A stretch of DNA of 64,000 nucleotides. Source: Limnothrix sp. BL-A-16 (GTDB taxonomy: Bacteria > Cyanobacteriota > Cyanobacteriia > CACIAM-69d). The translations under genes and the position numbers were made by a program. The DNA lies in contig CP166615.1 of the NCBI GenBank assembly GCA_041937175.2, forward strand, positions 960,001-1,024,000, read 5' to 3'. This document shows positions 49,548 to 52,360 of the stretch, one piece after another. Numbering within the stretch: position 1 is the stretch's first letter; each line of letters starts with the position of its first letter. Below the pieces are notes generated by a model. The model had not been told where the DNA came from and searched no databases. It worked only from the letters and a program-made list of their open reading frames with translations.

Positions 49548-51011
49548 ATGATGCTCACGCCCGAGGAGTTTCAGCAACAATGGACAGCCCTGCTCGATCG
49601 GGTGGAAACCTGCACCACGGAAAAAGCCCTAGAAGATCGAGTTTTGACCCCATTGCTGATGCTGCTAGGCTATGACAGAGCCGATGTGGCCCAACAGGTT
49701 CCTTTTGGGCGTAAACGGGTTGATTTTTTAGTGAGGGCCCAACAAGCAGCTCCCTGTAGCCACTATTTGGTCATTGAGGCAAAAGCACCCCGCAAATCGA
49801 TCGCCCACAATAGCTGGCAACTGCGGGAATATCTCCGGGAATCGGGCAGTTTGTTGGGCCTATTAACCAATGGCAATCAGTTCAAGTTGCTCTATAACGA
49901 TGGTAGAGCAATTCACATTCTGTGGGAGTTTGAGCGAGCCGATCTTTACGGTAACTATCGGTTGCTGGGATCGTTGCTGTGGGAGCGCAATTGCGATCGG
50001 GTCATGGCCGCCTTTGCCGATAGCCATCGAAAGGTTCATCATCAATTTATTCGGGCGATCGCGCGGCTTTCTCACGATCCCAAAATGATGAGCCTGTTGG
50101 CGATTCACGATCGCCAAACCTCAGACCCAGAACCTCAACGGCGAGAGTCTATGATCATCACGGTTTTTAACAACAAGGGTGGGGTTGGTAAAACAACACT
50201 CACCATCAACTTAGCCGCTGCCTTAAGCCAAATGGGCAAGCGAGTTTTGCTGATTGATATTGATGCTCAGGCCAATTTAACCACCGGACTCGGAATTGAT
50301 CCCCTTGAAGATATTGAAAAAGCGGGACGCAAGGATATTACCCATCTGCTGACGGAACCCAAAACCACGGCCGCTTCTGTCACCATCAGCAAGCGCTGGG
50401 GCAATGTGACCTTGGATGTGATTCCTTCCCATATTCGGCTCAGCAATATGGAGAATCAGCTCATTCAGTTAGTGGATAGCGATCGAATCCTGGCCAAAAA
50501 ACTCAAAAACCATGACTATGATTTTGTATTCGTTGACCCACCGCCCTCCTTTGGGAAAGTGAACCGAATTTCCCTGATGGCTTCGGCGGGAGTTCTGGTG
50601 CCCACACAGCTTTCCCCCTATCCCATTCGTGCCTTGGAATATGTGCTTAGTCAAGTGGAAGAGGTGGGACAATTCCGAGAAACACCCCTGCCGATTGTGG
50701 GCATTGCTGTCAGTATGTATGATCGCCAGTCCAAGACTTTTAATCAAGCCATGGTGGATGATTTGAACGCCAAGCTTGATCGGCTCCCGGGGGGCGATCG
50801 CACGGCGCTTTTCCGCGAGGAAACTTGGGTTCCTCGGTTAAATGTTTTGTCCAAATCTCAATCGAAAGGCTATCCGCTTTGCGCGGCTGATTTTGATGAG
50901 GATCTGGGATCTCAGGATCGCAATTCCGTTGAAAATGCCCTGGCGGCCTTTGAGAATTTGGCCAAAGAATTGATTCAAAAAGTTAGTGTTGACGCTGAAC
51001 CTAACCCATGA
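49548..51011 (+). CDS. HsdR-N-like PD-(D/E)xK nuclease domain fused to a ParA/Soj ATPase
   Basis: N-terminus E..L.....PLL.LLGY...RVD..IEAK...QLREY...LLTNG; C-terminus NNKGGVGKTT, LLIDIDAQANLT, FVDPPP. Confidence 0.88.
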   Translation: MMLTPEEFQQQWTALLDRVETCTTEKALEDRVLTPLLMLLGYDRADVAQQVPFGRKRVDFLVRAQQAAPCSHYLVIEAKAPRKSIAHNSWQLREYLRESGSLLGLLTNGNQFKLLYNDGRAIHILWEFERADLYGNYRLLGSLLWERNCDRVMAAFADSHRKVHHQFIRAIARLSHDPKMMSLLAIHDRQTSDPEPQRRESMIITVFNNKGGVGKTTLTINLAAALSQMGKRVLLIDIDAQANLTTGLGIDPLEDIEKAGRKDITHLLTEPKTTAASVTISKRWGNVTLDVIPSHIRLSNMENQLIQLVDSDRILAKKLKNHDYDFVFVDPPPSFGKVNRISLMASAGVLVPTQLSPYPIRALEYVLSQVEEVGQFRETPLPIVGIAVSMYDRQSKTFNQAMVDDLNAKLDRLPGGDRTALFREETWVPRLNVLSKSQSKGYPLCAADFDEDLGSQDRNSVENALAAFENLAKELIQKVSVDAEPNP

Positions 51012-51979
51012 GCGATTATCAAGAACGTCGCCGCCTGATTCGCGAAAATCTGAAGATTCAACCCGTTAACCATGGTCAGGTTCATACCTGTTTGGTGGGG
51101 ATGCGATCGCAACCGAAAATTTCACCCGATCGCTATGAGGAACTGCGGTGGAGTTTGCAGAATCACAACAGCAATTTGATCCCGATTTTAGTTCGCCGCA
51201 CCGATCAGCTTGGGGATGAAGTGGAATATGAGGTGATCCATGGGGCCGATTGGGTGGTGGTGGCCAATGATTTAGACATTGGAATGCTTTGGGCTTGGGT
51301 TTTTGACCTAAGTGATGCGGAAGCGGAATTAGCCCAAGAAGAGCTGGCGGTTTTGTTAGAGAGCGATCCCCCTTCGGCCTCGATTGCCAACCCCGATTCA
51401 AGCCCTCAGCCAGTTGTGGAAACAGGCATCGATTCAACTTTTGGCCAGCGTCTGGAAGAACAATTAACCCAACGGTTGGAGCAACTTCTCGATCAAAAAC
51501 TCACCCAGTCTCTTGCGGGAGTGACCATTGCCGATCGCCATGCTTTGGGGGATGCCAACTCAGCGCAAACATTGGCCAAGCTCGAAAGCCAAATGACAGC
51601 TCTCAGCCAACAGGTGGCGAACCTTAGCCAACCGGGAAATGCGATCGCGCAGCCACAGCCGCCCAGCCCTACGGGCGAAACCAACTCCAGCAGCGCCGCC
51701 CAGGAAATGGTTGCTTCTTTGGAGCGATCGATCCATCGCCTTTGCGAAGTGGTGACCGAAGGATCAAAAATTACCCTGACGATCGAGCCGCCGGCCCAGT
51801 CGCCAGCCAAAATTGTTGATCCCCAAGAAGCCGAACTGCGGGCCATTTACGGCGCGATCGCGTTGACCAAGCTCAAAACCCTCGCCAAAGAAAAGGGAAT
51901 CGCGGTCAGCAGCAAGGCGAAGGCTGAGGAAATTATTGAGGCCCTGATTGAATCCCATCGTCCATCGGTTGCGTCCTAG
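51008..51979 (+). CDS. Degenerate ParB-N-like protein with coiled coil and C-terminal Rho-N/HeH-like helical motif
   Basis: L..SL......IPILVRR...YEVIHG; LEEQLTQRLEQLL coiled coil; LTKLKTLAKEKGI....KAEEIIEAL. ATGA overlap with the ParA gene. Confidence 0.7.
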   Translation: MSDYQERRRLIRENLKIQPVNHGQVHTCLVGMRSQPKISPDRYEELRWSLQNHNSNLIPILVRRTDQLGDEVEYEVIHGADWVVVANDLDIGMLWAWVFDLSDAEAELAQEELAVLLESDPPSASIANPDSSPQPVVETGIDSTFGQRLEEQLTQRLEQLLDQKLTQSLAGVTIADRHALGDANSAQTLAKLESQMTALSQQVANLSQPGNAIAQPQPPSPTGETNSSSAAQEMVASLERSIHRLCEVVTEGSKITLTIEPPAQSPAKIVDPQEAELRAIYGAIALTKLKTLAKEKGIAVSSKAKAEEIIEALIESHRPSVAS

Positions 51980-52023
51980 TAGCATGACAGGCTTAATACA
52001 TTGGGTCAAAGTTGCGGAGCCAG

Positions 52024-52064
52024 TCGTAGTAACAAGGGGCTTGAGCATCTTGCTGCCTAACGAT
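52024..52064. repeat. REP-family palindrome variant
   Basis: CAAGGGGCTTGAGCATCTTG at 52033-52 is the exact reverse complement of 21484-503; flanks resemble the 48383-48530 array in inverted orientation. Confidence 0.75.
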
Positions 52065-52229
52065 TTGGTGGTGATAACAGCCATGTAATTTAACCCAGTG
52101 AATTAAGGCAGCCACGCTACTAGGCTCAATTACATCTAGCCTGGGGCTAGTGCTGAGCGAGGACGGACAACATTTGGCGAGATTGATCGGGGCAGTTTCC
52201 GCAAACTTCATCAAACTTCATTGCCACCC

Positions 52230-52287: not shown

Positions 52288-52360
<73 letters not shown>

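Follow-up and report, generated by a model that had tools for sequence, protein, structure and literature searches.

The window, a 64,000-nucleotide stretch of the Limnothrix sp. BL-A-16 genome, contains a pair of genes, A and B, that we interpret as an REase-type effector-ParAB module acting against invading DNA, and we place the probability of this defence role at about 0.6. It is favoured over a housekeeping role because the pair comes in cognate types, is replaced in place, carries swappable tails on B and occurs as broken copies, while type-1 A was never found without B (17/17 genomes). The general idea of the sequence-only reading, that partition components were combined with a nuclease for a role in genetic conflict, is borne out by invariant residues, a patchy distribution, in-place replacement and decay, but the defence-island enrichment that it expected was not seen.

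Gene A (49548..51011, + strand; 487 aa) is predicted to encode a PD-(D/E)xK nuclease of the HsdR-N type fused to a Soj-like ParA ATPase. Its nuclease head (~aa 20-130; 49605..49937, +), assigned from residue invariance and a DrdV/HsdR fold, has E25, D59, E77, K79, Q91 and Y95 as its key residues, within the motifs R57-V58-D59, I76-E77-A78-K79 and Q91-L-R-E-Y95, and the ParA domain (aa 202-480; 50151..50987, +) holds Walker A K210/K215, D237-x-D239-x-Q241 and Walker B D330. Pfam AAA_31 matched aa 203-375 (E 9e-44) and HSDR_N_2 matched aa 40-115 with a sub-threshold E of 2e-4, the latter profile also matching 33 of 34 A family members in a set covering three types. Across 76 distinct full-length type-1 homologues from the fetched loci, E77, K79, Q91 and Y95 are kept in all 76, and E25 and D59 in all 75 that cover them; in a wider alignment E25, D59, E77, K79 and Y95 are invariant in 34/34 A proteins of the three types. 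Likewise, K210-G-G-V-G-K215-T, D237-x-D239-x-Q241 and D330 are invariant (76/76), which upholds the claim of an intact deviant Walker A (KGGVGKT). In the AlphaFold model of gene A (pLDDT 86) the first 165 residues matched two nuclease domains, that of DrdV (Z 11.9, rmsd 3.0, 129 aligned) and that of HsdR 3h1t (Z 11.6, rmsd 3.9, 129 aligned), and the model matched ParA 8ray with a Z of 33.3, while Foldseek with the whole model returned ParA-like chains only. The dN/dS of the nuclease part was 0.08-0.19 in 5/5 pairs, with 0.03-0.09 for the ParA part of the same five pairs. Given the invariant nuclease residues and these dN/dS values, the nuclease is a maintained, predicted enzyme site and not a relic, and the proposed fusion of an HsdR-N-like domain with an intact catalytic set to ParA stands. 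This fold, with D, ExK and QxxxY, is shared with type I HsdR and type IIL/IIG enzymes (3h1t, DrdV, BpuSI), but gene A has no methyltransferase, specificity subunit or helicase motor, and its ATPase is a ParA. Neither gene A nor the recurrent neighbours of the pair include HsdM, HsdS or an SF2 motor.

Gene B (51008..51979, +; 323 aa) encodes a ParB-like partner without the arginine patch, and its start overlaps the end of gene A by ATGA at 51008-51011, as had been read from the sequence. It is composed of a ParB/Srx-fold domain (aa 1-120; 51008..51367, +) with a type-specific first helix, an HGQ motif and G79-A-D81-W82 where G-E-R-R stands, a variable helical/coiled-coil linker (~aa 144-248; 51437..51751, +) and a Rho-N-type HeH tail (~aa 272-321; 51821..51970, +), in place of which relatives carry HhH or another small module. 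By itself gene B gave no notable match in Pfam, NCBIfam or PADLOC. Its modelled N-domain (pLDDT ~97) had PadC as best structural match (Z 11.7, rmsd 2.7, 96 aligned), alongside KorB (Z 11.3) and sulfiredoxin (Z 10.4), with Noc and ParB matched too. PadC of Myxococcus xanthus is a ParB-like adaptor that uses the ParB fold to hold ParA, retains CTP binding and links to bactofilin; gene B shares the fold but differs in having a DNA-binding-type tail and a nuclease-bearing ParA as partner.

The GADWVVVA of gene B aligns on GERRYRAA of the canonical ParB of the same genome (profile alignment, probability 60%), and among 115 homologues position 81 is occupied by D/E in 108 and position 82 by W in 97, with N56 (115), G79 (114), E75 (109) and R63 (105) also kept. 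Pfam gave no HTH_ParB match, and the model shows long helices followed by the HeH tail, for which the match to Rho-N 1a62 is weak (Z 5.8, rmsd 2.0, 46 aligned). The earlier description of a ParB-like start with GADWVVVA for the arginine motif, followed by a coiled coil and a Rho-N/HeH tail with no HTH, agrees with these results. Tails matching Rho_N or HHH_3 were found in gene B homologues: the BL-A-16 locus has HeH/Rho-N, other loci have HhH, and there is a third small module; all three are present among Nostoc loci, the third occurring in type-2 partners as well. From the models, gene B is a ParB fold without CTP arginines that carries a putative DNA-binding tail of an exchangeable, sequence-independent type. 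When 1.84 billion representatives were searched with a profile, the 135 matches tailed off into canonical ParBs, and a Limnothrix redekei locus (L045) has a B domain 98% identical to that of gene B.

These features bear on whether the pair could be a standard ParABS system to which a passenger domain has been added. Gene A is Soj-like with all ATP motifs, the gene order is parA-parB, and the ParA fold, deviant Walker A and ParB/Srx fold are all shared with type I ParABS (Soj/Spo0J, KorB, Noc), but A has a nuclease head with invariant residues, and B lacks the GxxRxxA arginines (its positions 81 and 82 being mostly acidic and W), the ENxxR motif and the HTH. Furthermore, no parS was found on contig C1 within 2 mismatches of the chromosomal consensus among sites with the central four bases intact, although another site sequence is possible, and a canonical ParB with GERRYRA lies elsewhere in the genome (G000:C1:159629-159898, L011) with no parA within 1.5 kb. 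This explanation is already largely refuted and we consider it extremely improbable.

The pair sits between an aldose epimerase gene and tRNA-Thr(TGT) (52288..52360, +; Rfam), the tRNA being the only Rfam match at the locus. Scans of the two flanking genes identified the aldose epimerase and a PMT_2 glycosyltransferase, and the ORFs of 40-62 kb showed nothing recognisable as hsdM, hsdS, a motor gene or a rep gene (these two genes scanned, the rest judged by eye), in agreement with the sequence-only reading. The locus has a GC content of 0.515 vs 0.552 for the genome, and 5 HIP1 sites in 2.4 kb vs 1.15 per kb genome-wide, and on GC and HIP1 content it is therefore long-resident. Promoter and terminator scans of the locus gave no excess over shuffles. 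In two metatranscriptome libraries, contigs span A and some of B with approximately the depth of the neighbouring gene, which is not proof of transcription, and neither gene was covered in one metatranscriptome run. A short repeated insertion of ~145 nt with inverted ends and CTAG on each side (51976..52123, no strand assigned) lies on the gene B stop codon, leaving it intact; it is outside the A-B system, has 25 genomic copies of >=130 nt, is absent at the gene B site in L002 and looks like a miniature inverted-repeat transposable element.

The sequence-only reading called the pair uncharacterised, which holds insofar as a literature search, with most subscription journals outside its reach, found no experimental study of effector-ParAB, and a Synechocystis locus tag queried with ParA led to no paper; the architecture, however, was defined computationally and named effector-ParAB by Li, Burroughs and Aravind in October 2026 (bioRxiv 10.64898/2026.10.19.760177). 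As the main text of that preprint defines it, the system is an operonic ParA-ParB with an effector, mostly an REase, directly N-terminal to ParA and a ParB predicted to be inactive, in which HhH or Rho-N HeH replaces the HTH, with enrichment in cyanobacteria. Set against this definition, the A-B pair shows no difference in architecture on four points: operonic coupling (the ATGA overlap, and an intact upstream A in most loci), an enzymatic effector N-terminal to ParA, an inactive ParB pattern with conserved polar residues (N56, R63, E75, G79), and an HhH/Rho-N HeH module C-terminal to ParB, the last on the weak Rho-N match given above. The ParA motifs that the preprint text names for the ConB1 branch of PriB1 (N208, V213, Q241) are present in 76/76 homologues, though Soj has them too. 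A difference lies in the patch arginines, which are all gone in gene B with position 81 acidic, whereas the preprint allows that ParB of effector-ParAB may still bind nucleotide. On the preprint's main text, the pair fits the REase subtype of effector-ParAB, a class already predicted in print, and the locus itself is no discovery. Three cognate types, in-place replacement and orphan B genes receive no mention in the preprint's main-text sections, although its supplements may list the type-1 subfamily or the A-B types. Beyond that main text, the present analysis adds the cognate types, cassette replacement, swappable tails, broken copies and the finding that type-1 A did not occur without B in any of 17 genomes.

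We compared the organisation of the pair in 75 named loci fetched with B, a set picked by two short patterns and not a census. In 64 of these, B has an intact A immediately upstream; the A is broken or lacks its head in 4, type-1 A is missing in 3, and the other 4 loci run into a contig edge. With intact A next to B in 64/75, pairing is far beyond chance, which is the outcome of the survey of pair conservation that had been suggested. Of 301 genomes sampled evenly from the cyanobacterial phylum, 17 yielded type-1 A (15 whole, 2 split), always with type-1 B, which it adjoins in 16, while type-1 B lacked type-1 A in 12 of its 29 genomes, 11 of these 12 being of one genus in which B lies behind a type-2 pair. 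In the one genome of the 17 where they do not adjoin (G023; L014 and L138), type-1 A and B are ~1 Mb apart and both intact, and can therefore be kept unlinked. Types 2 and 3 are laid out in the same way but differ in their partner motifs, and their B was found in 54/301 and 41/301 genomes, respectively, a few of each being weak. A quick tree of 137 ParA domains separated the three A types by long, well supported branches, although this tree is unrooted with no topology test, and the meeting of long branches leaves the order of the types uncertain. The pairing was compared in 126 ORF rows, some of them repeating one locus and 2 having no partner; there were 88 A1-B1, 21 A2-B2 and 15 A3-B3 pairs, with no mixed pairs. 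We therefore recognise at least three deeply split A-B types that, on these sequence comparisons, are cognate.

The A-B pair is widespread but patchy in cyanobacteria. Many complete genomes have no match, and the pair is patchy inside genera (1/4 in g3, 2/8 in g43, 1/5 in g37). In a family of 37 genomes (f31), type 1 occurs in 4 and type 2 in 16 with both in none, an exclusion that taken alone is not significant (~1 in 11 by chance, by our own arithmetic). One locus filed as Actinomycetota (L070) has cyanobacterial neighbours and tree position, and is therefore not counted as non-cyanobacterial. BL-A-16 itself also has a type-3 pair (G000:C1:1576881-1578970), and the nearness of this pair to a gene that by eye resembles a type IIG/IIL restriction-modification enzyme is a point in favour of defence.

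Slot comparisons, made for 12 pairs of loci, point to whole cassettes of types 1 and 2 replacing one another in place. L077 (type 1) and L129 (type 2) are 96% identical in both flanks, with only a 103-nt match of 72% inside, and the flanks of L098 (type 1) and L127 (type 2) are 92% and 91% identical; the remaining pairs were more distant or had one flank in common. Such replacement could be mimicked by differential loss from an ancient tandem of both types, and G212 does carry types 1 and 2 only 4 kb apart, but no remnant of the other type lies between the L077 and L129 flanks. Decay was also seen, with A broken or shortened in 4 of the 68 loci that have an upstream A, and B broken in L095 and L082. 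Replacement in place, decay and the absence of type-1 A without B are evidence pointing to conflict and not to housekeeping.

The defence-island enrichment that had been expected was not seen among the neighbours scanned, mostly recurrent ones of 359 neighbour clusters, of which PADLOC was run on 22 proteins and NCBIfam on 17. PADLOC gave no full known defence system for its 22 proteins (recurrent neighbours and a few paralogues), and for A and B themselves, a check that had been suggested, it gave only matches to the Walker A region and a weak match to mad2. Scattered neighbours matched HepT toxin, RNase D/Cas4-like, PDC-S03 and the ZorC C-terminal region. Most neighbours of the pair are instead housekeeping genes, and a number of its sites are conserved between genera, with synteny to ileS, a second ParA, an nblS-like kinase and desA-like genes (labels partly by eye). 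These neighbours, together with strong purifying selection, long residence and the absence of types 1 and 2 from the phage, plasmid and viral collections searched, count against defence. The conserved synteny, the strong purifying selection and the long-resident chromosomal location favour an accessory role in nucleoid housekeeping. Here A would ride polyploid chromosomes like Soj or McdA, B would be a CTP-independent adaptor (cf. PadC, its best fold match), and the nuclease would resolve or clear DNA in repair, segregation or DNA removal during filament differentiation; an orphan canonical ParB in this genome, and the lack of a strong Soj-like match besides gene A, also fit such a role. However, a distribution of 17, 54 and 41 of 301 genomes for type-1 A, type-2 B and type-3 B, with many complete genomes lacking any match, is hard to reconcile with it, decay and in-place swaps to a distant type are unusual in core functions, and caspase, HEPN and TOPRIM effectors occur in the same position according to the preprint's main text (bioRxiv 10.64898/2026.10.19.760177). 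We therefore hold the housekeeping role to be unlikely.

Searches for type 1 found none in INPHARED phages or PLSDB plasmids, and 273 pattern matches in IMG/VR of which 0 were confirmed, which ruled against a phage or plasmid origin of this type. Type 2 was likewise not found on plasmids, and type 3 was found on 4 plasmid records. The last of these results, the translational coupling, the cognate pairing and the fact that type-1 A was never without B would all suit a selfish addiction module, similar to a toxin-antitoxin system, in which an unstable B neutralises the nuclease A and the pair is kept by post-segregational killing and not by host benefit. Against this, the toxin gene would come first, B is large with swappable tails that suggest choice of a DNA target, types 1 and 2 were absent from the plasmids searched, and copies are often lost, so that addiction appears very unlikely.

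As had been proposed, we modelled both folds, which match a nuclease-ParA and ParB/Srx, and the complex of A (1-482) with B (1-122). The complex scored 0.44 vs 0.04 for the best control, with three runs agreeing in >=90% of contacts and a partner pLDDT of 78-79. The pass mark is reached by 116/157 solved complexes and 2/215 mismatches, those passing at a score of 0.60 or under being 18/157 solved complexes and both passing mismatches. The prediction, which used the A monomer without ATP, lends weak support to A-B binding, and the score may reflect likeness to solved ParA-ParB complexes.

In the defence reading, ATP would cause A to dimerise and bind DNA, much as Soj undergoes ATP-driven dimerisation on DNA. 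By analogy with Soj and with type I/IIL nucleases, the A dimer would bring two nuclease heads together and so cut both strands. B would sit on DNA via its tail and bind its own A through the ParB-fold domain, with no CTP clamp cycle. As A depends one-sidedly on B and the arginines are lost, B is probably a CTP-independent cognate regulator whose function is more likely restraint than clamping. We therefore favour a mechanism in which B holds A back from the host chromosome, and DNA without B, or loss of B during infection, would allow A to cut either the invader or, in abortive infection, the DNA of its own cell. As an alternative within the same defence reading, the preprint's main text gives the ParB part the proposed task of recognising invader DNA and recruiting ParA, with the effector as a second line (bioRxiv 10.64898/2026.10.19.760177).

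A more specific proposal is methylation-independent restriction with self marked by protein, in which B would coat the chromosome and silence its cognate ParA-nuclease, unmarked DNA would be cut, and whole A-B specificity types would be exchanged at fixed slots; we consider this unlikely. If it were true, stand-alone or phage-like copies of the B domain would be invader mimics that disarm the system. More generally, if the defence reading is true, the pair would be a common cyanobacterial barrier to phage and plasmid DNA made from partition parts, and one possible reason why many filamentous strains resist transformation. The pair is also a convenient test case, being compact at two genes and having defined catalytic residues and three cognate types for swaps.

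Copies of the B domain were observed alone (100-120 aa) or within unrelated proteins, mostly on short contigs (P0116, P0121, P0125, P0145, P0148, P0149; P0111, P0140, P0150, P0166). Two of the unrelated proteins carry a cysteine motif that we take to be one found in cyanobacterial phage proteins, and these copies are possible phage mimics; a search for viral context with one short/phage-like relative was empty. In G212, the type-2 ParA (L141:5777-7354) adjoins the split type-1 copy and has lost the nuclease head in favour of another N-terminal region, which by eye looks helicase C-terminal-like. A divergently transcribed solo ParA of ~295 aa often flanks the slot (L051:3354-4310, L122:7043-7942, L136:6835-7794 and others); in the tree these solo ParAs group in a separate clade of 25 rows. 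Recurrent genes were also seen downstream at the slot (L049:9248-11239, L071:6774-8237, L124:16165-19001): a P-loop ATPase accompanied by a partner of 270-300 aa, and a fusion of an RNase D-like exonuclease to a Cas4-like nuclease. Lastly, beside the type-3 pair of BL-A-16 (G000:C1:1572420-1578970; L140:2421-8971) there is a small REase-like gene followed by an 1158-aa gene, which by eye looks like a type IIG/IIL restriction-modification enzyme.
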